Assembly (NCBI GenBank): GCA_040756875.1
Contig: JBFLYH010000002.1
Location: 478,526-542,525 of the forward strand
Length of the DNA stretch: 64,000 bases
Direction: 5' to 3'
Source: a candidate division FCPU426 bacterium
GTDB taxonomy: Bacteria; Oederibacteriota; JAAXVQ01; JAUVAV01
In this document: positions 17,856 through 35,299 of the stretch, piece by piece
Numbering within the stretch: position 1 is the stretch's first letter
Layout: each line of letters starts with the position of its first letter
The notes under the pieces: model-generated
Told to the model about the DNA's origin: nothing
The model's database searches: none
What the model saw: only the letters and a program-made list of their open reading frames with translations
Translations under genes and position numbers: made by a program

Positions 17856-19085
17856 TCAGGCTTTTTTGCGCTGCTTGCCCGATTTGCTTCTCAGCTGCGC
17901 CTGCACCTTCAGGGGCAGGCCGTAGAGGTTGATGAAACCCGTGGCGTCTGATTGGCGGTAAACGTCATCCCGGCTGAAGGTGGCCAGTGCCTCCGAGAAC
18001 AAGGAGTTGGGCGAACGCCGGCCCAGAGCCGCGGTTTGCCCGCGGTAAAGCTGCATGCGCACTTCGCCCGTGGCCGCGGACATCACCTGGTTCATGAAAG
18101 CATCCAGGGCTTCGCGCAGAGGCGTGAACCACTGGCCATAGTAGACCATTTCCGCGTATTTCAACGCCAACTGGCTGCGGAAATGCATGGTTTCCCGGTC
18201 CAGCACCAGGCTGGCCAGTTCGTGCAGGGCCGCCACCAGTACCGTGCCAGCCGGCGTTTCGTACGCCCCGCGCGATTTCATGCCCACCAGGCGGTTCTCC
18301 ACCAGGTCCGTGCGGCCCACGCCATGGCGGCCGGCTTGGATGTTGAGGGTCTGGATCAGCTTGACCAGGTCCAGTTTGCGGCCGTTCAGGCTGACGGGCA
18401 CGCCGGCGTCGAAACCAATAGTCACTTCCTCGGGTTCGGCCGGCGCTTGTTTGGGGTCCTGGGTCAGCATCCACACTTCGGAACTCGGGGCCTGCCAGGG
18501 ATCTTCCAACTCGCCGCCCTCGTGCGAAATGTGCCAAAGATTGCGGTCGCGCGAATAGATCTTCTTCAAAGACTGGGAGACCGGCACGTGATGGGCCTCG
18601 GCGTAAGCCAGGGCGTCCTCGCGCGAACGCAGGGTCCACTTCGGGTCTCGCCAGGGCGCGATGACCGTCAACTGAGGGGCCAAGGCCTGGTAGGTCAGCT
18701 CGAAACGCACCTGGTCATTGCCCTTGCCTGTGCAGCCGTGCGCCACGGCGTCGGCTTTTTCCTTAAGCGCGATTTCCACCTGGTGCCTGGCGATCAAAGG
18801 CCGGGCGATGGACGTTCCCAGCAGGTATTTGTTTTCGTACACCGCTCCGGACTTCAACAGCGGGGCGAGATAGTCTTCGGCGAACTCCTTTTTCAAATCC
18901 AAAACATAGCACTTGGAAGCGCCGGTCTGTTTGGCCTTGGCCGGCAAACCGTCCAGTTCCTCCTCCTGGCCGATATCCGCCGCGAACGCAATCACTTCGC
19001 AATTGTAATTCTCTTTAAGCCAGGGAATGATCACCGAGGTGTCCAAACCCCCGGAATACGCCAGAACGACTTTCTTGATGGCCAT
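17856..19085 (-). CDS. argG: Argininosuccinate synthase
   Basis: [59 protein letters not shown] before MAIKK. Confidence 0.97.
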
Positions 19086-19349
19086 GGAAGTAGGCTCCAT
19101 ATAAGATTTGATATTAAAACATCTTGATTCAAGACTTATTTTCTATATCTGATTAATGATAGCGGAAGCTATGTGGGAATGCTACTTCATTTTTAAACTG
19201 CTTTTCCCGAAGAACTCTGGTGGCTTCGGTTCTTTACAAAACGCCTTAATTCTGCCAGGGGGCTGAAAAACACTCATGACAACAGCTAGTTATACACATC
19301 TTTTCATAATCAGAACATATCATTGCCTATTATAACTTTTCGGATATTT

Positions 19350-20807
19350 TCATTTATCAGCAGATTCCGCCGCAAGAGAATAAACCATTAAGGCTTTATC
19401 ACCCGAACCGACTTCCAGAACGCAGGTAGACACAATACCTGGAATCGTCCGAAAGGTTTTATCTTGAGCATTCGTAAGTACTAACCATGCCTTCAAAAGA
19501 TCTTGCCTTGCCCGGGTTTTAACCACATCATTCAATACCCAGACCGAATCGCCGTCTCGATTTCGTTGGTCGAAGTAACCTGACCGAACATAAACATGGT
19601 CGCTCGATGGTTCTAAATAATAAGCCAAACAACCTCGTTCAATCAAATCAACAACTAATACTTTGGATGATTCCTCCATGTGCTCGCGTAAATAATTCGC
19701 CACCGTTTTATAATCTTGTTTGGAATATTGGCTCGGCTGCAAATGATATTGATAAACCGGGAATAGCAGTATTCCAACCACCATGACATTTTTTAACCAC
19801 TTTGGCCCCGGTATCAATTCCAATAAAATTGAAGTCCCATATCCCACTACCAAGAGATATATCGGCAATAAAAATATAGTATTACGCGTGGTTACAATCT
19901 GAGCATGCGAAGTTATTAAAAACAGAGATACAAGCATGATCACAAATGCGCTTGCCAGAACCACAAGTTTGTGGTTCTTATGTATTATTGCCATGATTGT
20001 ACCCAGCAAAAACAAAAGCGCAAACCCGTAATACCACCCATTAAAAAAACCTATGGAACTATATTGGGAAAGTAGCACAGAAAAAAACAGCGGCAAGAAA
20101 GGCATTCCGTATCCCGGGGTATGCTCCGCGTGGCGAAATTGGTTTAGAAGCAATGGTACCCAAGGGCTAAATATCAGCAGAGAAATGCCCGCATTAACTA
20201 CCGCTTGAGGTATTTTCCAGGAAGTGATTTTAACGTTTTTATATCTCCATAGCCAATAGAGGCCTTCGATAACCATAACAAACATTCCAAAATAATGCGT
20301 AAGCAGGAGGAGTCCATTAACTGCTCCCAACCCTATTGCCCAGGGCCAGCTTTGTTCTTCACACCATCGGACAGTCAAATATAAACTAACCAATGACAAC
20401 AAAAGAAACAGCGAATACATTCTGGCTTCTTGTGAGTAAGCTATGGCCATCGGGGATAAGGTAAAATACATCGTGGGCACCCAAGCCTGTGTTTTGCCAA
20501 TAAAATAGCGCGCCAATAAATAAAACACAGGGATGGATAGAATCCCATAAATGGCCGCTGGCAGGCGGACAATCCAGTCCGCTTTCCCAAACACAAGAAA
20601 AAATTTCAGCAGGATATAATCCAACGGCGGCGAAAGGTGGGTTCCAACGATGCGAAACAGATCATGCCAAGAGGAAGAAGCAGTAATAACCTGGCCAATC
20701 TCATCCAGCCAGAGGGATTGATGACCTAAATGGTACAAACGGACAATACTTCCTAAAATGACTATAATTAGAAGCGGATTATTTTCTCTGATGTTATTTA
20801 GTGTCAT
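19350..20807 (-). CDS. GT39/PMT-family (GT-C fold) membrane glycosyltransferase
   Basis: RLYHLGHQSLWLDE, SPPLDY, RLPAAIYG, YSQEARMYSL, LLTHYF; about 11 TM helices plus a periplasmic tail. Confidence 0.85.
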   Translation of the reverse strand: MTLNNIRENNPLLIIVILGSIVRLYHLGHQSLWLDEIGQVITASSSWHDLFRIVGTHLSPPLDYILLKFFLVFGKADWIVRLPAAIYGILSIPVFYLLARYFIGKTQAWVPTMYFTLSPMAIAYSQEARMYSLFLLLSLVSLYLTVRWCEEQSWPWAIGLGAVNGLLLLTHYFGMFVMVIEGLYWLWRYKNVKITSWKIPQAVVNAGISLLIFSPWVPLLLNQFRHAEHTPGYGMPFLPLFFSVLLSQYSSIGFFNGWYYGFALLFLLGTIMAIIHKNHKLVVLASAFVIMLVSLFLITSHAQIVTTRNTIFLLPIYLLVVGYGTSILLELIPGPKWLKNVMVVGILLFPVYQYHLQPSQYSKQDYKTVANYLREHMEESSKVLVVDLIERGCLAYYLEPSSDHVYVRSGYFDQRNRDGDSVWVLNDVVKTRARQDLLKAWLVLTNAQDKTFRTIPGIVSTCVLEVGSGDKALMVYSLAAESADK

Positions 20808-20825
20808 TATTAATCAGTATTATGT

Positions 20826-21593
20826 TTATTTTATTTTCATAATCCAAATAATCGTCATATTTTTAGGTCTAGTTTCAGTACCTCCCGTTGTTCCAATTAT
20901 ATACGAATTCCAAGTTATTGTATGATCAGTAAGAGTATTTGAGATAGGATACTGCCCGCCTCCCGAACCAGCGTCTAACGCTATTGCATGGTTATGAGCT
21001 TTAAGGTCATCTGCTTGCAATACACCCGAAGAAGAACCGCCACGCAAAAATCTTCCTTGATTGTTGAGGTCCGGAATTATTTGTCCATCAAAAACACTTT
21101 CCGGATCACTCAGTGTCTGGCCATTGCATTCCACCCACTGCGAAGAGAGGGTCGGGGCGCCAGGGGGCATGTTTTTATGCCAGGCGATGATACTGCCAAT
21201 CGGCACATCATAATTCAAAACAAACGGCACACCGTTGAGCGGCTGGCGGGGTAACATTTCATTATCCGATCCCACCTGCACTCCCAACCAGTACTGATTG
21301 CTGAAATCCACATTTTTAGATAAAAGTGGAGTAGTTACGCCCAGTCGCACGTTGAAATATCCGTTCTTCACTTCCACATTGGTTAAGCTTTCGCTCCATT
21401 TGGCCGAGCCAACCAAGGCATTTGGATCGTCATACAGCCTGAAAGTAATGACATAATTGCCATCTGTCACCGGATTGCCTAGACTGTTGGTCAATCTTCC
21501 CTGATAATTAATCGTTCTTGATGCGGGCGTGGCAAAAACTGTCGAGCAGATCAAGAATAATGAAAGCAACCCCAGTAGTGCTTGCTTTTTCAT
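20826..21593 (-). CDS. Secreted protein: N-terminal INYQGRL...VPF domain + phage tail-collar/fibre-tip C-terminus
   Basis: Signal peptide MKKQALLGLLSLFLICSTVFA; INYQGRLTNSLGNPVTDGNY...PRQPLNGVPF; then VPIGSIIAW...WVECNGQ...PDL...RFLRG...QADDLKAHNH...GGTETRPKNMTIIWIMKI; GGAGG RBS. Confidence 0.75.
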   Translation of the reverse strand: MKKQALLGLLSLFLICSTVFATPASRTINYQGRLTNSLGNPVTDGNYVITFRLYDDPNALVGSAKWSESLTNVEVKNGYFNVRLGVTTPLLSKNVDFSNQYWLGVQVGSDNEMLPRQPLNGVPFVLNYDVPIGSIIAWHKNMPPGAPTLSSQWVECNGQTLSDPESVFDGQIIPDLNNQGRFLRGGSSSGVLQADDLKAHNHAIALDAGSGGGQYPISNTLTDHTITWNSYIIGTTGGTETRPKNMTIIWIMKIK

Positions 21594-21610
21594 TTTATTC
21601 CTCCCTCTTT

Positions 21611-22189
21611 TCATTTCACCAACGCTATTTTTTTAGACAGCGTGGTTGTTTTTCCTGCTTCAGACTTGGCCTTTATCCATAATAAATAAACGCCATTGGC
21701 AATATTGGACGTATCCCAGGTCCAGCTATTTGAACCCAAGGGTAAACTAGCCCAATGCTGAGAAATCACCAGATCCCCATTGACTGTAAATACTTTCAAT
21801 TCCACCTCAGCCCGCATGGCCAAATCAAAATGGATGGTGCCGCGTTTGCCCCGGATAGGGTTAGGTGCGGCATAGACATAGTCCGCGCATATCACTTCTC
21901 CTCCGAATGAGCGGATGGGAGTTGGGGTTACAGTTGGAGTCGGCGCGGGTAAAAAATAGTCATTAAAATATCCGGCCTGAACTGAATAGCGCCCACTCCA
22001 GCTTTGGCCTACCAATGATTCCCCGCTAGAATCGAACAGATAGATTCCTGAAGATTCCTGGGTATTGCCTGTACTACTGACTTGCATTTGATTGAGCTGG
22101 TAATTGGCCGATGATTGAGCTGCCTCGAGCGGACTGCTGGCAAAGATTATTAAAATAACCGCCAGCCACATTTTCGCAAGCGTCTTCAT
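21611..22189 (-). CDS. Small secreted protein with PT linker and T9SS type-A-CTD/FlgD-Ig-like C-terminal domain
   Basis: Signal peptide; SSANYQL...GRYSVQAGYF domain; PAPTPTVTPTP; YAAPNP...KVFTVNGDLV...WTWD...ANGVYLLWI...KKIALVK. Confidence 0.75.
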   Translation of the reverse strand: MKTLAKMWLAVILIIFASSPLEAAQSSANYQLNQMQVSSTGNTQESSGIYLFDSSGESLVGQSWSGRYSVQAGYFNDYFLPAPTPTVTPTPIRSFGGEVICADYVYAAPNPIRGKRGTIHFDLAMRAEVELKVFTVNGDLVISQHWASLPLGSNSWTWDTSNIANGVYLLWIKAKSEAGKTTTLSKKIALVK

Positions 22190-22225
22190 TTTATATCCCC
22201 CTTAAACCGGGTGATTTTATCATTA

Positions 22226-23995
22226 CTAGAAAGCAATACCTACATTAACACCGACGCCGGGATAAGTAAGCGATACCGATAGCGACGATTTAATATCCAT
22301 ATCAGGGCCTTTTATACTGCCATTGGTTGCGGTTAGATTGTACAAACCCAGATATGGGGACAACACAAACCAATCATTTTTGCCTAATAATATTTTATAT
22401 CCCACTTCTGCTCCAATGGTCAGAACGGTAGCTTTCATCGTCGCTAGTTCTTCATTGAATAGGCTCCCACCTAGCTCCCCTAACTGGTATTTGATTATTG
22501 GTCCCATCCAAAAGCCAGAATACTTCTTACCATCATGCGGTAAATAATATCTCCCCGAAAGACCGGCACCATATATTAAATTACTATATGAAGAAACACC
22601 GTTGCTTCCGCTCCTAATAGTCAACAGACCTTTTACTGCCGCCGAGAATTCAGAAGTTAATGCTCTTTCATATTCCAATTCCAAGGAAATACCCGACCAA
22701 TTACTGAAAGAGAATAATCCAAGCGGATTTATTGTCAGGGCATTGGGTTTTTCCAAAGATTCCATATGTGATTTTAAAACAGGCCCGGATTTCAGCTCGG
22801 TTTCTGTTTTTACCTCTGGTTTGGCAGGTGTCGCTTTTTCGGATGTAATCTGCGCCATGATCACAGGCGTCGCGTCTGCGGTTTTTTGCGTTGGCTCTGG
22901 AGTCGGCGTCTGGGTCGGCTCTGGGGTTGCAGGAGTTGGCTGGGGAGTGGGTGCGGGCGTGGCCGGAGTTGGAATAGGTGTAGGTGCCGGAGTCATTGGT
23001 TCTTCTGACGTCGAGGCTATTTCCGTCGGCACAAGCTGACGCAGCGTCCCGCTTCCTTCTCCGGGAATGCGCAGCATCAGGGAAACGCGATGCTGATGCG
23101 CCTGCAGTTCGCCGGGATCGTAGCGGAAAGCGTAATCCACTTCGTAATATTCCGAACTATAGGAGGCGCCGGCAGTGATGCCCTGGCCGTCATACCCCAG
23201 TCTGGCAGCCAAGTTCTGTATAAACCAATACTCGGCTCCCAACCGAAAATTAAACCGGGAGTATTCGGAAAATTCGATATCCAGGGCTGTAACCAAGTGG
23301 TTAAAGTACATCCTGTCCTGGGATGGAAAGAATTTCAGCGACGTACCGAGTTTGACATTGAGCGGAGTGAAATCCATGCTGTTTTCCGCCACATTCCAAT
23401 ACAACCGCTGAAAGACATTTTGCACGTTCAGACCAATAGTATGGTCCAAGTACAATACCGGCTGCCATAAAGCGCCGATATCCAAACCATGGCCAACCGC
23501 TGTAAATCCGTCCATTCCTTGGTGGAGATATTTTAAACTGGCACCCAGCGAAAGGCCCTTGACCCACTCGAAGGTTTTACGTCCATAACTGAGAAAAATG
23601 GCATTTTCCGCATTGATAAAAGTCCCGGCTACTAGGCCGTTTTCATCGCGTTTTTCGATCTCGCCGCTATTGAAATTGATCCAACCTAATTCCAAGTTGC
23701 CCACTTCAGGCCATTGAAATGCATACGAGAGATAACTGGAACTCATTTGATTAGACAATACGGCATACTGCGATCCGACTTCATACATATATAAATCCAT
23801 TTGCGCTAAACCTGCCGGGTTCCAATAACCAGCAGTTGCGTCATCAGCCAAAGCCACGAACGCACCGCCCATTCCTAATGCCCTGGCGCCTACGCCTTGC
23901 CGCAAGTAAACGCTACTGCCGTAATTATTGCCATCCGACCACGCTGAAATCGGAAGTAAAACCAAGGCTATTGCCAACCATGGCATTCTTTTCAT
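22226..23995 (-). CDS. PorV/PorQ-family beta-barrel fused via Pro/Thr linker to a second (DUF3575-like) beta-barrel
   Basis: Signal peptide; GVGARALGMGGAFVALADDATAGYWNPAGLA signature; PorV-like end DYAF...HRVSL; TPAPTPIPTPATP linker; C-domain NALTINPLGL...ELEYERAL...GVNVGIAF with terminal Phe; GGAGG RBS before MKRMPW. Confidence 0.8.
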   Translation of the reverse strand: MKRMPWLAIALVLLPISAWSDGNNYGSSVYLRQGVGARALGMGGAFVALADDATAGYWNPAGLAQMDLYMYEVGSQYAVLSNQMSSSYLSYAFQWPEVGNLELGWINFNSGEIEKRDENGLVAGTFINAENAIFLSYGRKTFEWVKGLSLGASLKYLHQGMDGFTAVGHGLDIGALWQPVLYLDHTIGLNVQNVFQRLYWNVAENSMDFTPLNVKLGTSLKFFPSQDRMYFNHLVTALDIEFSEYSRFNFRLGAEYWFIQNLAARLGYDGQGITAGASYSSEYYEVDYAFRYDPGELQAHQHRVSLMLRIPGEGSGTLRQLVPTEIASTSEEPMTPAPTPIPTPATPAPTPQPTPATPEPTQTPTPEPTQKTADATPVIMAQITSEKATPAKPEVKTETELKSGPVLKSHMESLEKPNALTINPLGLFSFSNWSGISLELEYERALTSEFSAAVKGLLTIRSGSNGVSSYSNLIYGAGLSGRYYLPHDGKKYSGFWMGPIIKYQLGELGGSLFNEELATMKATVLTIGAEVGYKILLGKNDWFVLSPYLGLYNLTATNGSIKGPDMDIKSSLSVSLTYPGVGVNVGIAF

Positions 23996-24076
23996 CTTGC
24001 CTTCCCCTCCGGGATATTTGTTCTTTTTATATTTAGACTGACAAGACAAAATTTCATTGCACCTTTTATTTATAAA

Positions 24077-24787
24077 TTAGTCCCACAACCCATAGCGCAG
24101 GATGCAGTAGAGGGCGCGGAAGGCGTCCTTGGCCCCGATCTTTTTGCCTTCCTGGTAGGTGCGGCCGTGGTAGGTGATGCCCACCTCGTAGAAGCGCAGG
24201 CCCCGGCGGGCGAACTTCAAGGTGATCTCGGGTTCAAAGCCGAAGCGGTTTTCCTTGAGGGTCACGCCCGTCAGGGCGTCCCGGCGGAAAGCCTTGTAGC
24301 ACACTTCCATGTCCGTCAGATTGAGGTTGGAAAAAAGGTTGCACAGGGTGGTGAGAAAGCGGTTGACCAGCGCGTGCCAGAAAAACAGCACGCGGCGCGG
24401 CTTAGTGGTGAGCAGACGGCTGCCGTAAACCACGTCCGCCACCCCGCGCACCAGCGGTTCGAGCAATTCGGGGTAATCGGCCGGATCGTATTCCAGATCG
24501 GCATCCTGGACCAAAATCACTTCCTGCCGCGCCTGCTTGAAGCCCTCCCGCAAGGCCGCACCCTTGCCTTGATTCCGCGGCTGCCTGAAAACGCGCAGAT
24601 CCCGGCCCTTCAGCTTGGCCAGGATGGCGGGCGTGCGGTCCGTGGAGGCGTCGTCCACCACGATGATTTCTTTGGCCAGGGGCACGGCCCGAACGCGGCG
24701 GATCAGCTCGGCCACTGTCTGTTCTTCGTTATAGACGGGAATGACGACGGAAATCGCCGGAAAACGCAGGCGGCCGGAGGCGGGCAT
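24077..24787 (-). CDS. GT2 glycosyltransferase, DPM1/polyprenol-phosphate glycosyltransferase-like
   Basis: SVVIPVYNE, VVDDASTD, NQGKGAA, QDADLEYDP, YGSR, TDMEVCYK, FGFEPEIT, RTYQEGKKI. Confidence 0.9.
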   Translation of the reverse strand: MPASGRLRFPAISVVIPVYNEEQTVAELIRRVRAVPLAKEIIVVDDASTDRTPAILAKLKGRDLRVFRQPRNQGKGAALREGFKQARQEVILVQDADLEYDPADYPELLEPLVRGVADVVYGSRLLTTKPRRVLFFWHALVNRFLTTLCNLFSNLNLTDMEVCYKAFRRDALTGVTLKENRFGFEPEITLKFARRGLRFYEVGITYHGRTYQEGKKIGAKDAFRALYCILRYGLWD

Positions 24788-24789
24788 GC

Positions 24790-25755
24790 CTAGCCTTTCC
24801 GCTCCATGAGGAGCTTGAGAATAGCCTTTTGCACGTGCAGGCGGTTTTCGGCCTGGTCAAAGACAATGGACTGCCGCCCCTCGATGACTTCCTCGGTCAC
24901 TTCCTGGCCGCGATGGGCGGGCAGGCAGTGCAGAAACACCGCGCCCGGCGCGGTGTGGGCCATGAGCTTCTCGTTGACCTGGTACTTTCTCAACGCCTTG
25001 AGCCGCTGCGCCTGTTCTTTTTCCTGGCCCATGGACACCCATACGTCGGTGTATACGGCGTCCACCTGCGTGGCCGCCTGCACCGGGTCCTGGGTTAGGC
25101 GCAAGGTGCCGCCGCTGCGCTTGCGGTCTGCTTCGCTCAGCTCGACCGTGTGCCGGTCGATTTCAAACCCCATGGGCGAGGCCAGGGTCAGGTCCATGCC
25201 GGTTTTGGCCGCACCGTAAATGAGGGAACGGGCCACGTTGTTGCCGTCGCCGATGTAGGCCAGGCGCAGATGCTTGAGCCGCCCGAAGCGTTCCCGCAGG
25301 GTGAGCAGGTCGCTGAGGATCTGGCAGGGATGGGAATAATCGGTCAGGGCGTTGATCACCGGCACCGCGGCGTGTTTGGCCATTTCCACCACTTTTTCGT
25401 GGGCGTCGGTGCGGATCATGATGCCGTTCACGTAGCGCGAAAGCACGCGGGCCGTGTCCGCGATGGTCTCGCCGCGGCCGAGCTGCAAATCGCGCCCGGC
25501 CAGGTAAAACATGGCGCCGCCCAGCTGGTACATGGCCGCCTCGAAGGAGACGCGGGTCCGGGTTGAGCTTTTTTCGAAGATGCCGGCCAGGATCTGCCCC
25601 TGCAGGCTGCGGTCGCTCCGGCCCCGGCGGAAGGCCGCCTTGAGCTGCTCGGCCGTGGCCAGGATCAATTCGATGTCCCGGGGCGTGAGCTGCGCCATGG
25701 TCAGCAGGTTTTCCACGGATAGTTTTGAAGTTTTGTTTTTTTTCTTCGCGGTCAT
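24790..25755 (-). CDS. argF: Ornithine carbamoyltransferase
   Basis: FEKSSTRTRVSFE, HPCQ, GDGNNV, DVWVSMG, HCLPAHRG, DQAENRLH. Confidence 0.96.
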   Translation of the reverse strand: MTAKKKNKTSKLSVENLLTMAQLTPRDIELILATAEQLKAAFRRGRSDRSLQGQILAGIFEKSSTRTRVSFEAAMYQLGGAMFYLAGRDLQLGRGETIADTARVLSRYVNGIMIRTDAHEKVVEMAKHAAVPVINALTDYSHPCQILSDLLTLRERFGRLKHLRLAYIGDGNNVARSLIYGAAKTGMDLTLASPMGFEIDRHTVELSEADRKRSGGTLRLTQDPVQAATQVDAVYTDVWVSMGQEKEQAQRLKALRKYQVNEKLMAHTAPGAVFLHCLPAHRGQEVTEEVIEGRQSIVFDQAENRLHVQKAILKLLMERKG

Positions 25756-31909: not shown

Positions 31910-34215
31910 GCCACCTCCCCTTCCGCGCGGGGCGGGGCGACCACTTGCTGATATCCGCAGTTTTCCTGCGGACAGATCCATAGGGTCCCGGTCTTTTTGC
32001 CGTGCTTCTCGACCAGATACGGGTGCCCGCATTGCGGGCAGGCCTGGGCCACCGGCCGGTTCCACGACACGAACTGGCACTCCGGATACCGGCTGCAGCC
32101 GTAGAACATCCGGCCGCGGCGGCTGCGGCGTTCGATCACCTGGCCTGTGCATCCCGGTTTCGGGCAGGCCATGCCGATCTCCTTGTTGATCGACTTGGTG
32201 AATTTGCACTCCGGGTACCGGCTGCACGCCAGGAATTTCCCGAAGCGGCTGTACTTGACCCTCAGCGGGCTGCCGCAGGTCTCGCAGGTGCCGGACACTT
32301 CCTCCTCGGGTTGCACCGTGATGCGGCCGTCGGCGTCCCGGTTGAGGGGCTTGGTGTTGCGGCAGGCGGGATAATTGGAGCAGGCGATGAACTTGCCGTG
32401 CCGGCCCCATTTCACGGTCAGCCGGCCCCCGCATTTTTCGCACACCTCATCCAGCGCCACCTCCACCTCGGACTTGACGTCCTGCATGTCCCGCTGCGCC
32501 CGCTCGAGATCCTGGTGGAAAGAACCGTAGAAATCCTTCAGCACCTGCGTCCACTCGGCTTCGCCGGATTCGATCAGGTCCAGCTTGTCCTCCATGGACG
32601 CGGTGAATTCGATGTTCAGAATGTCCGGAAAATGGGCCACCAGCAGGTCGTTGATGATGATCCCGATCTCCTCCGGATGAAACCGCCCTTCCCGGCGTTC
32701 CACGTAGTTGCGCGCCAGAATGGTGCTGATGATCGGCGCGTACGTGCTGGGACGGCCGATGTTGTTCTCTTCCAGCGCCTTGACCAGCGTGGCGTCGTTG
32801 TAGCGGGCAGGCGGCTGGGTGAATTTCTGCTCCGGCCGCACGCCCAGGCGGTTGAGGGGCTGGCCGTCCGTCAGGACGGGCAGCTGCTTGTCCGTGCTTT
32901 CGCCCCCGGCCTGGCTTTCCGCGTTTTCCGCCCCCTCCTCCGCGGTCTCGGCGTACAATTCCAGGAAGCCGCGAAATTTCAAAACCGACCCCGTGGCGCG
33001 CAGAATATACGGCCCGGCCTGGATGTCCACGCTGGTGGCGTCGTACAGCGCGGGATTCATTTGCGAAGCCAGGAAGCGCTGCCAGATCAGGCGGTACAGC
33101 TTGAACTGGTCGGCCGTCAGGTGCTTCCTCAGGGTCTCCGGCGACTTGTCGGCCGAAAAGTACGTGGGCCGGATCGCCTCGTGGGCGTCCTGCACCGCGC
33201 GCTTGCTGCGGTACTGGGGCGCTTTGTCGGGCAGGTATTCCTGCCCGTACTGGCCCGCAATGTACTCCCGCGCCTGCCCCTGGGCTTCGCTGCTGACGCG
33301 CACCGAGTCCGTGCGCATGTAAGTGATGAGCCCCACCGGACCCTCGCTGCCGATCTCCAAGCCCTCGTACAGCTGTTGGGCCACGAGCATGGTCTTCTTG
33401 CCCGTGAAGTGCAGCTTATTGGCCGCTTCCTGCTGCAGTTTGCTGGTAATGAACGGCGGCGCCGGAAAACGCCGCTGCTCCTTGCGTTCGACCTTGGCCA
33501 CCTGGTACGAGGCGGCTTCCAGTTCCGCCACCACGGCCTGACTGGCGGCTGCATCGTGGAGCTCGAGTTTTTCCCCGTTCTTGCTCAACACCAGGGCCGT
33601 GAACTTCTGGCCGGATTCGGTGGCCAGGTCCACTTCGATTTTCCAGTATTCCACCGGAACGAACTTTTCGATTTCCCGTTCCCGGTTGACAATCAGCCTG
33701 ACGGCCACGGACTGCACCCGGCCCGCGGAAAGCCCCTTGCGCACTTTCTTCCACAGCAGGGGCGAAAGCGAATAACCCACCAAGCGATCCAGAATGCGCC
33801 GGGCCTGCTGGGCGTTGACCAGGTTCTGGTCGATCTCCCGGGGCTGGTGAATCGCCTGCTCGACCGCATGCTGGGTGATTTCATTGAACATCACGCGGTA
33901 GATGACCTTGCTCTTGCCATTCAATTCCTGGTTCAGATGCCAGGAGATGGCTTCCCCTTCCCGGTCCGGGTCAGGCGCCAGATAGATTTTATCCATTTTG
34001 GACGCCAGGCGTTTCAGTTCCTTCAGAATTTTCGAGCGGGAACGGATTGTTATATAATGTGGTTTAAACCCGTCTGCAACGTCCACGCCCAGCTTGCTTT
34101 TAGGCAAATCCCGCACATGACCCATGGAGGCCACGACTTTAAAAGTCTTGCCCAGGATCTTATTGATGGTCTTTGCCTTGGCCGGAGATTCAACTATTAC
34201 CAGATTCTTCTGCAT
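31906..34215 (-). CDS. topA: DNA topoisomerase I with C-terminal zinc ribbons
   Basis: LVIVESPAKAKTI, DPDREGEAI, SAGRVQS, ITYMRTDS, QDAHEAIRPT, GRPSTYA, three C4 zinc ribbons. Confidence 0.97.
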   Translation of the reverse strand: MQKNLVIVESPAKAKTINKILGKTFKVVASMGHVRDLPKSKLGVDVADGFKPHYITIRSRSKILKELKRLASKMDKIYLAPDPDREGEAISWHLNQELNGKSKVIYRVMFNEITQHAVEQAIHQPREIDQNLVNAQQARRILDRLVGYSLSPLLWKKVRKGLSAGRVQSVAVRLIVNREREIEKFVPVEYWKIEVDLATESGQKFTALVLSKNGEKLELHDAAASQAVVAELEAASYQVAKVERKEQRRFPAPPFITSKLQQEAANKLHFTGKKTMLVAQQLYEGLEIGSEGPVGLITYMRTDSVRVSSEAQGQAREYIAGQYGQEYLPDKAPQYRSKRAVQDAHEAIRPTYFSADKSPETLRKHLTADQFKLYRLIWQRFLASQMNPALYDATSVDIQAGPYILRATGSVLKFRGFLELYAETAEEGAENAESQAGGESTDKQLPVLTDGQPLNRLGVRPEQKFTQPPARYNDATLVKALEENNIGRPSTYAPIISTILARNYVERREGRFHPEEIGIIINDLLVAHFPDILNIEFTASMEDKLDLIESGEAEWTQVLKDFYGSFHQDLERAQRDMQDVKSEVEVALDEVCEKCGGRLTVKWGRHGKFIACSNYPACRNTKPLNRDADGRITVQPEEEVSGTCETCGSPLRVKYSRFGKFLACSRYPECKFTKSINKEIGMACPKPGCTGQVIERRSRRGRMFYGCSRYPECQFVSWNRPVAQACPQCGHPYLVEKHGKKTGTLWICPQENCGYQQVVAPPRAEGEVA

Positions 34216-34369
34216 CTTTCCTCGCCGTATATATATAGATAAATGGCCCCGGCCAACGTAGACCAGTGGCCCGGGTTCTTTCCCTCCGAAGAAATCCCAC
34301 AACGCTCTTTCCGGGCACAGTCCCCAAAGGAACCACTGTCCGGGAATGCCTGAGGAGGGATCGAATAAT

Positions 34370-34400
34370 AATTTAAGCACAGGCTGCTTGTAAAAGTCAA
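34370..34400 (-). promoter_or_regulatory. Putative sigma70 promoter of topA
   Basis: Minus strand TTGACT followed 18-19 nt later by TTAAAT/TAAATT, with AT-rich upstream tracts. Confidence 0.45.
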
Positions 34401-34528
34401 TAAATTCCAGGAGAAAACCGAGGCAAGAAAAAAACGATTTCAACACGACATACAGGCGGAATTTTCTTATCGGCAACCACAATTGATTTCTCTAAAATAA
34501 CTTCAATATTTCTACAAAAATAATGACG

Positions 34529-35299
34529 TCATTTGCATTGAATAATACCCAGGCCACTCCTGCAGCCAACGATGCGGTTGGAATCCACTCGTCCGGCGAA
34601 GCGCACGTCCATCGCAAATCCCAGCTTGCTTATTTTTTTTCCGTGCGGAGTGGAAACGAGAAAGCGCGTCCAGTTATTAATGCCGCGCGCCGACCTATAA
34701 GCAGCGCTCGCTTCTCTTGACCAGGTTTTTTCCCAGGCCTGAGGATCAGGGCTGCGTTTTCTCAGGCCGGCCAGCAACTTTCCCAAAACAGCGGTATCCT
34801 CGGGCGAGGTGCGGCCCTGATCGCCGGCTGCCAGCAAGACCAGATGTTTTTCAGGCCTGCTTGCCAGCCTGCTGCAAACCGAGGACAAATTGAGCAGGCT
34901 GAGAATGAACACCCGCCTGGCCGGTGCCGCGGCAGCCAGCGCGCGCGTGCCGTTGCTGGTCGTGAGAACCACTTTTTTGGGAGGAAGGTTCAAAAAAGCC
35001 AAGGGCGAATTGCCCAGGTCAAAACCCCGGACCGCCAAACCACCCCGCTCTCCTGCCAGGTAGCACGGTTCTCCGTCCGCACGCAATTGCGCGGCCGTGC
35101 GCCTGGCTGAAGCCAGCGTGGCGCAGGGCAGAATGCGGGGGCAACCGGCTGCCAGGGCTGCAATCATGGTCGTGGTGGCGCGCAGTACGTCGCACACCAC
35201 GACCGTGGCCCCCCGCACATCCGCGACGCGGACAGCGGCCGGATGCGGAAAAAAGTCTACCCTTGGCCACCAGGATGTGCCGTCTGCCGCTTTACGCAT
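34529..35299 (-). CDS. comB: 2-phosphosulfolactate phosphatase family protein
   Basis: DVLRATTT, LAGERGG, FDLGNSP, LTTSNGT, ED motif. Confidence 0.85.
   Translation of the reverse strand: MRKAADGTSWWPRVDFFPHPAAVRVADVRGATVVVCDVLRATTTMIAALAAGCPRILPCATLASARRTAAQLRADGEPCYLAGERGGLAVRGFDLGNSPLAFLNLPPKKVVLTTSNGTRALAAAAPARRVFILSLLNLSSVCSRLASRPEKHLVLLAAGDQGRTSPEDTAVLGKLLAGLRKRSPDPQAWEKTWSREASAAYRSARGINNWTRFLVSTPHGKKISKLGFAMDVRFAGRVDSNRIVGCRSGLGIIQCK

Follow-up and report, generated by a model that had tools for sequence, protein, structure and literature searches.

How might a bacterium hold at its surface a phage-like fibre that lacks a sorting domain of its own, and what would the genes beside it contribute? 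The question is raised by a 64,000-nucleotide stretch of the genome of an uncultured groundwater bacterium of candidate division FCPU426 (assembly GCA_040756875.1, contig JBFLYH010000002.1, positions 478,526 to 542,525; hereafter the window), in which four co-oriented minus-strand open reading frames (ORFs) lie between argF and argG (window ORF listing; Table 1). In order of transcription, they encode a PorV/PorQ-family outer-membrane barrel (PorV607), a small secreted protein that we call the adaptor, a phage-like fibre, and a PMT_2-family glycosyltransferase; a GT2-family glycosyltransferase gene lies between PorV607 and argF. An earlier note on this DNA described four co-oriented AT-rich genes of these families beside a GT2 gene, with argF and argG as flanks, and the ORF listing, GC content, and hidden Markov model (HMM) scans confirm that description. 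We consider it moderately likely that adaptor and fibre form a two-gene surface-fibre module, in which an adaptor delivered through a type IX secretion system (T9SS) and associated with a PorV-type barrel displays a phage-like fibre that has no T9SS C-terminal domain (CTD). The window locus is best explained as one lineage's version of a widespread fibre-plus-adaptor module.

The unit that recurs is the adaptor-fibre pair, and PorV and PMT_2 are accessory to it. Within the source genome (G000; 3.22 Mb, rated 100% complete), tblastn recovered four adaptor-fibre pairs. Profile searches found six genes encoding the N-terminal domain of the fibre (fibN) and, with an iterated HMM of the N-terminal module of the adaptor (N-module), matches in only 6 of 15,723 ORFs; the two sets pair off one-to-one as same-strand neighbours. 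A CTD closes all six N-module proteins, whose Pro/Thr/Ser-rich stalks are ~13 to ~250 residues long. An adaptor-centred survey covered 17 full-length loci (from this genome, the related genome G001, other metagenome-assembled genomes (MAGs), and metagenomes), 13 of which had at least ~1.2 kb of downstream sequence. A fibN gene lay within 1.1 kb downstream in 12 of these 13 (the exception is L052), with a small intervening gene in three of the 12. The loci fetched from relatives for their matches to the PamT model discussed below were adaptor plus fibre in five cases out of five.

A fibre-centred survey with a fibN alignment (A3) returned 52 loci, of which 51 were scanned, L087 being excluded from the counts as a repeat of the G001 locus. 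Their record titles name Zixibacteria, Ignavibacteria, Chlorobiota, Armatimonadota, Chloroflexota, and Acidobacteriota. An un-iterated N-module profile matched an adjacent ORF in 9 of the 51 loci at E <= 1e-3 and five further ORFs at E values of 0.0016 to 0.015, every one directly beside a fibN gene. After four rounds of iteration (inclusion E <= 0.01), 25 N-module ORFs were found in 24 of the loci, all on the same strand as a fibN gene and within 1.05 kb of it, with the gene order running either way. These neighbourhood surveys uphold the earlier pairing of the CTD protein with the fibre as genuine and recurrent, and gene context strongly supports a functional linkage between the two.

What changes by lineage is the other end of the adaptor, with a T9SS CTD, a dockerin, or some further domain attached to the N-module. 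A Pfam scan was given 10 of the 25 N-module proteins: Dockerin_1 (cut-off 22.9 bits) scored 33.6 in L183 and 24.8 in L206 and fell short of the cut-off in L200 (22.3), L188 (19.4), and L186 (15.3), L176 gave a weak Por_Secre_tail match, and the remaining four gave nothing informative. The CTD HMM built from our genome found CTDs in the Goldiibacteriota-like loci and in L176 and L177; L211 and L213 have neither a CTD nor a dockerin and end in another C-terminal domain. A linkage of the N-module to fibN that is one-to-one in this genome and persists through these anchor swaps is difficult to account for unless module and fibre are directly tied in function. The identities of N-modules and fibN domains are also correlated across 12 pairs (Mantel r = 0.42, p ~0.004), a correlation that reflects shared descent (the window with L048, L032 with L038) and is no proof of contact.

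The fibre owes its phage-like character to its tip. The Collar model PF07484 scored 17.3 bits on the window fibre, below its cut-off of 24, and 26.5 bits on a homologue (P0031, 38% identical at 97% query coverage). Despite the sub-threshold Collar score, a gp12-type tip is confirmed, because positions 126-261 of the family profile (alignment A2, 33 sequences) matched solved phage short tail fibres (9cuy_c, E 5.3e-7; T4 gp12 1ocy_A, E 2.5e-5), PHROG tail-collar-fibre families matched residues 132-262 (phrog_1800, E 3.6e-9), and VIA-align superposed the tip on 1ocy_A (Z 6.0, root mean square deviation (rmsd) 4.2, 70 aligned residues, 31% identity) and 5iv5_O (Z 5.7). In A2, the tip has an HxH stretch and a conserved final strand. 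FibN is a confident beta-sandwich in the AlphaFold2 (AF2) model of the fibre, and VIA-align related it to generic Ig-like sandwiches only (Z 6-7.4). No Pfam model matched fibN in the scans run, Foldseek with the fibre monomer against the PDB returned nothing at E <= 0.001, and the own-genome CTD HMM found no match in the fibre, which is thus without a CTD.

A half-length fibN-like domain (profile positions 2-66) also heads virion proteins of 413-526 aa on five viral contigs (L225-L229). In L227, its gene follows portal, protease, and major-head genes and a 200-aa ORF. These viral domains may mark a phage origin of fibN. Further, four or five fibN fibre genes stand in a row in Zixibacteria or Ignavibacteria MAGs (L185, L186, and L192); among these arrays, an N-module gene was undetected in L192, and one was found in L186 (5532-6206).

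The C-terminal domain of the adaptor scored 30.3 bits with Por_Secre_tail PF18962 (cut-off 27) and 27.3 bits with TIGR04183 (cut-off 23), and the NCBIfam PorU and PorZ models match it as well; on these profiles it is predicted to be a T9SS type-A C-terminal sorting domain, and the protein also has a signal peptide. AF2 modeled it as a confident beta-sandwich (predicted local distance difference test, pLDDT, 94-98). Among many Ig-like Foldseek matches, the PorU CTD (6za2_A) had the lowest rmsd (2.4) and the highest identity (25% over 100 columns), and PorZ (5m11) was also present. The N-module is strongly conserved in the family alignment (A1, 35 sequences), in which the linker contains an invariant T-x-T-x-T...F stretch, and its residues 30-80 remained below a pLDDT of 50. 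No Pfam model matched the N-module in the scans run, and no PHROG family matched the adaptor at E <= 0.001. When the N-module alone was searched with phmmer against 1.84 billion representatives, 19 proteins were returned, 17 of them 117-206 aa long; the long matches P0157 and P0169 are repetitive and of low complexity and were judged spurious by eye.

PorV607, whose likely start is M19 (at 23995), scored 131.7 bits with the family model NF033709 (PorV_fam; cut-off 90) over residues 49-326 and fell below the equivalog cut-offs of both PorV (NF033710, 56.9 against 250) and PorQ (NF033711, 71.2 against 220). These scores indicate a family member that is an orthologue of neither. The HMM made from the genome's own PorV paralogues matched it at E 1.3e-80, and its GC content (0.473) is the lowest among the 43 paralogues (median 0.60). 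PorV607 forms one clade with the PorVs of L048 and L051 and that at C2:1065814 (support 100/100). Three of its members, all but the one at C2:1065814, are adaptor-linked, L048 being the window's orthologue and L051 a metagenome contig. The C2:1065814 protein is 65% identical, every paralogue outside the clade being at most 31% identical, and its gene likewise precedes one for a small CTD protein with a Pro/Thr stalk. This PorV subfamily may therefore serve stalked small CTD proteins, which would give the genome two such barrels for six adaptors. The C-terminal domain of PorV607 follows a Pro/Thr linker and has an aromatic last residue; language-model features liken it, as no more than a lead, to the DUF3575 small barrel (score 0.97 in 19 of 30 hits), and a single stand-alone paralogue of it exists (C1:3593-4216).

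No sprA or porKLMN gene lies in the window, as the earlier note had stated, and the genome beyond it holds the translocon. A 2111-aa ORF (C1:863629-869964) matched SprA/Sov (TIGR04189) at 224.2 bits against a cut-off of 200; SprA_N (PF14349) matched nowhere, controls included. A 1188-aa ORF is PorU-like at 84.3 bits against 420, the match being confined to model positions 587-772. The HMM of the genome's own paralogues identified 43 PorV-family ORFs (44 matching stretches in an earlier search), and a CTD HMM iterated within the genome identified 101 ORFs ending in a CTD (68 in an earlier search). A same-strand CTD gene lies within 300 bp of 35 of the 43 PorV genes, upstream in 29 of these 35 pairs and frequently with a 4-nt overlap; the window, with its CTD gene downstream, belongs to the minority. 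The genome thus has a one-barrel-per-cargo layout for type-A-like CTDs. Phrase searches of open-access papers found no description of PorV paralogue expansions, and a Goldbacteria paper (PMC7031533) names type IX secretion in its reference list only.

Several other features of this repertoire were seen. The PorV gene at C1:1100063-1100977, with its CTD gene immediately upstream, is an example of the common pair. About half of the 43 barrels have C-terminal extensions (ORFs of 420-850 aa). A 1067-aa ORF (C1:1002060-1005263) combines a weakly SprA-like stretch (30.9 bits) with a LysM-like piece, and a divergent PorV-like gene lies ~1 kb from it (C1:1006273-1007241).

The four genes form a low-GC insertion between a backbone GT2 gene and argG. 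GC content is 0.40-0.50 over about 19000-24000, against 0.60-0.68 in the flanks, and only 171 of the genome's 3216 1-kb windows fall below 0.48. Neither direct repeats flanking the island nor a mobile-element signature was found in a repeat scan of the island, and a promoter/terminator scan of it gave no clear operon boundary. The gaps of 17-36 bp described earlier depend on the start codons chosen: the database call for the fibre gene (255 aa, P0001) would yield a 17-nt gap between adaptor and fibre, whereas the longest ORFs overlap by 4 nt. A second fall in GC, to 0.51-0.53 at 33500-35000, lies at the edge of the composition profile.

Relatives record the history of the site. ArgG is 82-83% identical to that of "Candidatus Firestonebacteria" and "Candidatus Goldiibacteriota" MAGs and 64% to the next matches, which suggests that the host is related to these lineages. 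In G001, the order GT2-PorV-adaptor-fibre is kept at the same site (locus L048), the proteins being 89%, 55%, 73%, and 65% identical, respectively; the flank proteins are 82-92% identical and the island proteins 55-73%. PMT_2 is missing there, and a 183-aa reverse ORF (L048:10872-11423) takes its place. A related MAG (L091; ArgG 78% identical) has the order hslU-argB-argD-argF-GT2-argG-argH with only 180 nt between GT2 and argG and no island, and its adaptor-fibre-PMT_2 locus is at another place (L210). The module is thus portable, as the earlier note had it, in the sense that it occupies different sites in related genomes. Because L091 has argF-GT2-argG without the island, GT2 is a long-standing member of the arg cluster, and the island was inserted between it and argG. 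The small genes that separate adaptor from fibre in three loci encode HEPN, NTase-substrate-binding, or PD-(D/E)XK proteins (L036:4153-4563, L039:7431-7805, L055:8694-9071); together with the 183-aa ORF of G001, they suggest that small mobile or toxin-antitoxin-like genes use these islands as landing sites.

The two glycosyltransferases differ in their relation to the module. The 485-aa enzyme, with seven or more hydrophobic segments, matched PMT_2 (PF13231) at 56.2 bits against 26.1. The earlier assignment to GT39/PMT was borne out in this respect and not with PF02366 (PMT), which had no match at E <= 0.1 on the window protein and does match paralogues in L031 (29.3 bits) and L055 (37.9 bits). 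All four members of this PMT_2 subfamily in the genome (above 400 bits with its HMM, the next best at 83) are at most 6 kb from an adaptor-fibre pair. PMT_2 follows the pair in the window, L031, L032 (two genes), L038/L195 (two), L055, and L210, the copy in L038 being 40% identical, and is missing at L033, L037, L048, and L054; it is an accessory part of the island. PMT-type enzymes are known for O-glycosylation, and the Pro/Thr stalks are plausible targets. The GT2 protein (Glycos_transf_2 PF00535, 130.8 bits against 23.3) has AglJ/DPM1-like NCBIfam neighbours. We regard its gene as a backbone gene that predates the island and stands outside the module, because it is GC-rich like the flanks, is 89% identical in G001 against 55-73% for island genes, and is present in the island-free L091. 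The PMT_2 half of the linked glycosylation pair proposed in the earlier note does recur beside adaptor and fibre.

Table 1. Features of the adaptor-fibre island and its flanks, with positions in the window
Feature	Position	Strand	Remarks
PMT_2-family GT-C membrane glycosyltransferase, 485 aa	19350..20807	-	PF13231
Fibre, 262 aa (255 aa from M8, nt 21593)	20826..21614	-	Signal peptide, fibN, tip
Fibre phage gp12/collar-type tip	residues 137-262, nt 20829-21206	-	Profile/structure matches
Fibre N-domain fibN	residues 33-136, nt 21207-21518	-	Conserved, alignment A2
Adaptor, 192 aa	21611..22189	-	Signal peptide, N-module, Pro/Thr linker, predicted T9SS type-A CTD
Adaptor T9SS type-A CTD (predicted)	residues 101-192, nt 21614-21889	-	Extreme C-terminus
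Adaptor N-module, ~55 aa	residues 24-79, nt 21953-22120	-	Conserved in alignment A1
PorV/PorQ-family outer-membrane barrel, 607 aa (PorV607)	22226..24049	-	NF033709
PorV607 small C-terminal domain	residues 426-607, nt 22229-22774	-	
PorV607 Pro/Thr-rich linker	about residues 345-400	-	
PorV607 barrel	residues 48-327, nt 23069-23908	-	
DPM1/AglJ-like GT2, 236 aa	24077..24787	-	Backbone neighbour only
argF	24790-25755	-	Flank beyond GT2; argB, argD also in minus-strand run
argG	17856-19100	-	Other flank, then argH
AT-rich intergenic stretch, 249 nt	19101-19349		Island/argG gap, distal island border

Other genes accompany some of the pairs. TadE/TadG-like (Flp pseudopilin-type) proteins are encoded beside those of L031 and L038 (L031:9522-11537, L031:3936-5078, L038:6595-7731), and two DUF2079 membrane proteins follow one adaptor-fibre locus (L031:525-3984). 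A stretch of ~55 kb in our genome (C2:1013921-1069707) contains many GT2, PMT-like, and sugar-nucleotide genes together with an adaptor-fibre pair and two PorV genes and looks like a surface-glycan and fibre region.

How would such a module work? We propose that the fibre is exported by the Sec pathway and is presumably a trimer, with a fibN distantly like the N-terminal domain of the mosaic adhesive trimer (MAT) fibres of Bdellovibrio bacteriovorus and with an exchangeable tip. The N-module of the adaptor would be dedicated to the fibre, and the C-terminal domain would serve as a replaceable anchor to the surface, in the window a type-A CTD that follows a Pro/Thr stalk. An adaptor role is argued for chiefly by the joining of a constant N-module, next to a fibN gene, to alternative domains with a known role in surface attachment. 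The genome's T9SS (SprA) would export the adaptor by means of its CTD, and the barrel of the PorV607 subfamily encoded upstream would receive or hold it at the outer membrane, as PorV does PorU and PorQ does PorZ. The N-module, which is not confidently folded alone, may fold onto fibN, so that the fibre is displayed; the fibre could either ride out with the adaptor or be captured once it has been exported. The Pro/Thr stalks are probably O-glycosylated by the PMT_2 enzyme. We infer all of the physical contacts, how the fibre crosses the outer membrane, its trimer state, the glycosylation, and the ligand.

Several observations weigh against this proposal. PorV adjoins the adaptor in only 3 of the 15 loci with enough upstream sequence (the window, L048, and L051). 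The motor/ring components GldK, GldL, and GldM (PorK/L/M) were undetected in the genome, so that a canonical T9SS is a putative route of export only, although this negative is weakened in that the three models had no positive control, the GldM model being empty also in 5 other genomes and 14 controls. Phrase searches of open-access papers gave no precedent for co-export of a CTD-less partner with a CTD protein. The likeness of fibN to the MAT domain misses the cut-off of the Bdello_MAT_N model (NF053851, 60 bits), with 34.2 bits for the window fibre and 27-36 for all six fibres tested, and the match starts in the signal peptide, which can inflate scores; a genome-wide search with the model matched five of the six fibN places, at 20.7-34 bits. 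In the fibre-centred survey, 27 of the 51 loci had no N-module ORF in the fetched flanks, many of them being cut contigs, and none was detected in L185, with its tandem array of five fibre genes. The wide N-module profile was, moreover, iterated on the same loci in which its matches were then counted and so leans toward its own result; poor specificity is argued against by the whole-genome check, which gave six matches, all of them fibN-adjacent. One complex prediction, with three copies each of fibre residues 30-136 and adaptor residues 24-92, gave scores of 0.13 and 0.21, short of the mark of 0.32, and, having no controls, speaks neither for nor against contact.

Other readings assign the small protein or the whole island a different role. 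The small protein could be an assembly chaperone that assists trimerisation of the fibre and is absent from the final structure, like phage tail-fibre assembly proteins. Phage fibre chaperones are commonly encoded beside the fibre gene, and both the strict adjacency of the small gene to a phage-like fibre gene, in either order, and the disorder of the N-module on its own would suit such a role. We nonetheless regard it as unlikely, given that every copy has a signal peptide and a surface-attachment domain (a T9SS CTD, or a dockerin, above cut-off in two of ten tested), that Pro/Thr stalks of up to ~250 residues suit a spacer, and that the adaptor has no PHROG family at the threshold given above. 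That adaptor and fibre are co-regulated but separate, the adaptor being an ordinary small T9SS cargo and the fibre being anchored or released otherwise, seems to us similarly improbable: one more cargo would be unremarkable in a genome with 101 CTD proteins, yet the one-to-one linkage in six of six cases, persisting across phyla while the anchor domain changes, argues for a tie between the two. On the question of ordinary cargo, the earlier note had looked to a complete canonical T9SS elsewhere in the genome, and at least the translocon is there (SprA, above its cut-off).

The earlier note itself favoured a compact, portable system, which we read as one independent of a T9SS, the PorV barrel alone exporting and holding the CTD protein and GT2 and GT39 enzymes forming a dedicated glycosylation pair. 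The undetected GldK, GldL, and GldM, the extra small barrel-like domain of PorV607, and the foreign composition of the island could be taken as support. Such independence is very unlikely in a genome that has SprA above cut-off, 43 PorV and 101 CTD ORFs, and 35 of the 43 barrel genes paired with a CTD gene; PorV is missing from most adaptor loci, GT2 predates the island, and PorV-family barrels are not known to act as translocases. Upheld of the earlier reading are the idea of an adaptor and PorV's tie to it, the barrel belonging to a special subclade with full support without being a regular neighbour. We also rejected the reading of the island as what is left of a tail module from a prophage or tailocin, which we judge the least probable of all: the tip is of a phage family, and a half-length fibN-like domain occurs on five viral contigs, but there are no other phage genes in or around the island, both proteins have signal peptides, their partners are a T9SS CTD and a PorV barrel, and the arrangement is conserved in G001.

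If our preferred reading, a T9SS-delivered adaptor that displays the fibre, is true, bacteria can mount phage-derived receptor-binding fibres by way of a modular adaptor that is a protein of its own, and not by an anchor built into the fibre. The N-module protein would then be a specific candidate partner for the N-domains of MAT-like fibres, and a role would be suggested for PamT-like proteins. The idea of a cognate barrel per cargo would extend from type-B CTDs and PorP to type-A CTDs and PorV, in a little-studied phylum with 43 PorV paralogues, and the question arises of whether a T9SS can deliver a partner protein without a CTD. A broader version, that the N-module is a general docking peptide for trimeric, phage-derived fibN/MAT-like fibres with anchors swapped among a CTD plus dedicated PorV, a dockerin, an Ig-like domain, and possibly PamT, seems to us possible but rather doubtful. 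It would imply that a T9SS substrate carries or captures a CTD-less folded trimer and that the surface partner of MAT-type N-domains is a small protein of the adaptor kind. Phrase searches of open-access papers found no description of tail-fibre, T9SS, or dockerin adaptors of this kind.

Among known systems, the pairs SprB-SprF and PG1035-PorP resemble the window locus in that the gene for a CTD protein, there of type B, is linked to that of its own outer-membrane barrel. Passages of PMC12618676 state that the type-A CTDs of F. johnsoniae all use a single PorV and that type-B cargo use cognate, nearby-encoded PorP/SprF-like shuttles, and part of PMC9143113 describes PorP-like barrels as anchors of type-B cargo. 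In contrast to these systems, the barrels here belong to the PorV/PorQ family, and it is type-A models that match the CTDs. Closer in this respect are PorU-PorV and PorZ-PorQ of Porphyromonas gingivalis, in which a barrel of the PorV/PorQ family keeps a CTD protein at the cell surface; the CTDs of PorU and PorZ are retained and not cleaved, and the adaptor CTD model is closest to that of PorU in rmsd and identity. Unlike PorU and PorZ, the adaptor has no enzymatic or lipopolysaccharide-delivery domain, just a 55-aa module and a stalk.

On the fibre side, MAT fibres share a conserved N-domain, variable phage-like tips, several paralogues per genome, and a role as surface adhesins. Differences are the shortness of our fibres (255-450 aa) and the match of fibN, which stays below the cut-off and covers only model positions ~2-83 of 162. 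A passage of PMC10769870 calls the partner to which the MAT N-domain binds unidentified, and a 2026 review (PMC13689555) contributes nothing further; no N-module relative from a MAT genome turned up in our searches, in which Bdellovibrio genomes were not included. The tip is homologous to the C-terminal tip of phage T4 gp12, whereas the window fibre is a cellular gene product with a signal peptide, outside any baseplate, and its N-terminal half is unrelated to gp12.

The N-terminus of the adaptor (residues ~4-78) is also matched by the model of PamT, the predicted tip pilin of the Pam pilus of the Candidate Phyla Radiation (NF058579), in 14 adaptor-sized ORFs from 10 of 21 related genomes. Scores were 17-31 bits against a cut-off of 240 (31.2 for the N-terminal 75 residues of the window adaptor), and the match includes the signal peptide; five of five other adaptors had no match to the model at a library-wide E <= 0.01, and phmmer with the N-module returned no PamT-sized outsider. 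As part of a preprint (PMC13278184) reports, a tail-fibre-like gene co-localises with pam operons. We treat these PamT and Pam resemblances as leads. Finally, display by dockerin and cohesin in the cellulosome offers a parallel for the adaptors labelled Zixibacteria or Ignavibacteria that end in a type-I dockerin, which implies non-covalent docking to a scaffold, with the difference that the cargo would be a fibre held via a separate adaptor, whereas cellulosomal display has an enzyme that bears the dockerin itself.

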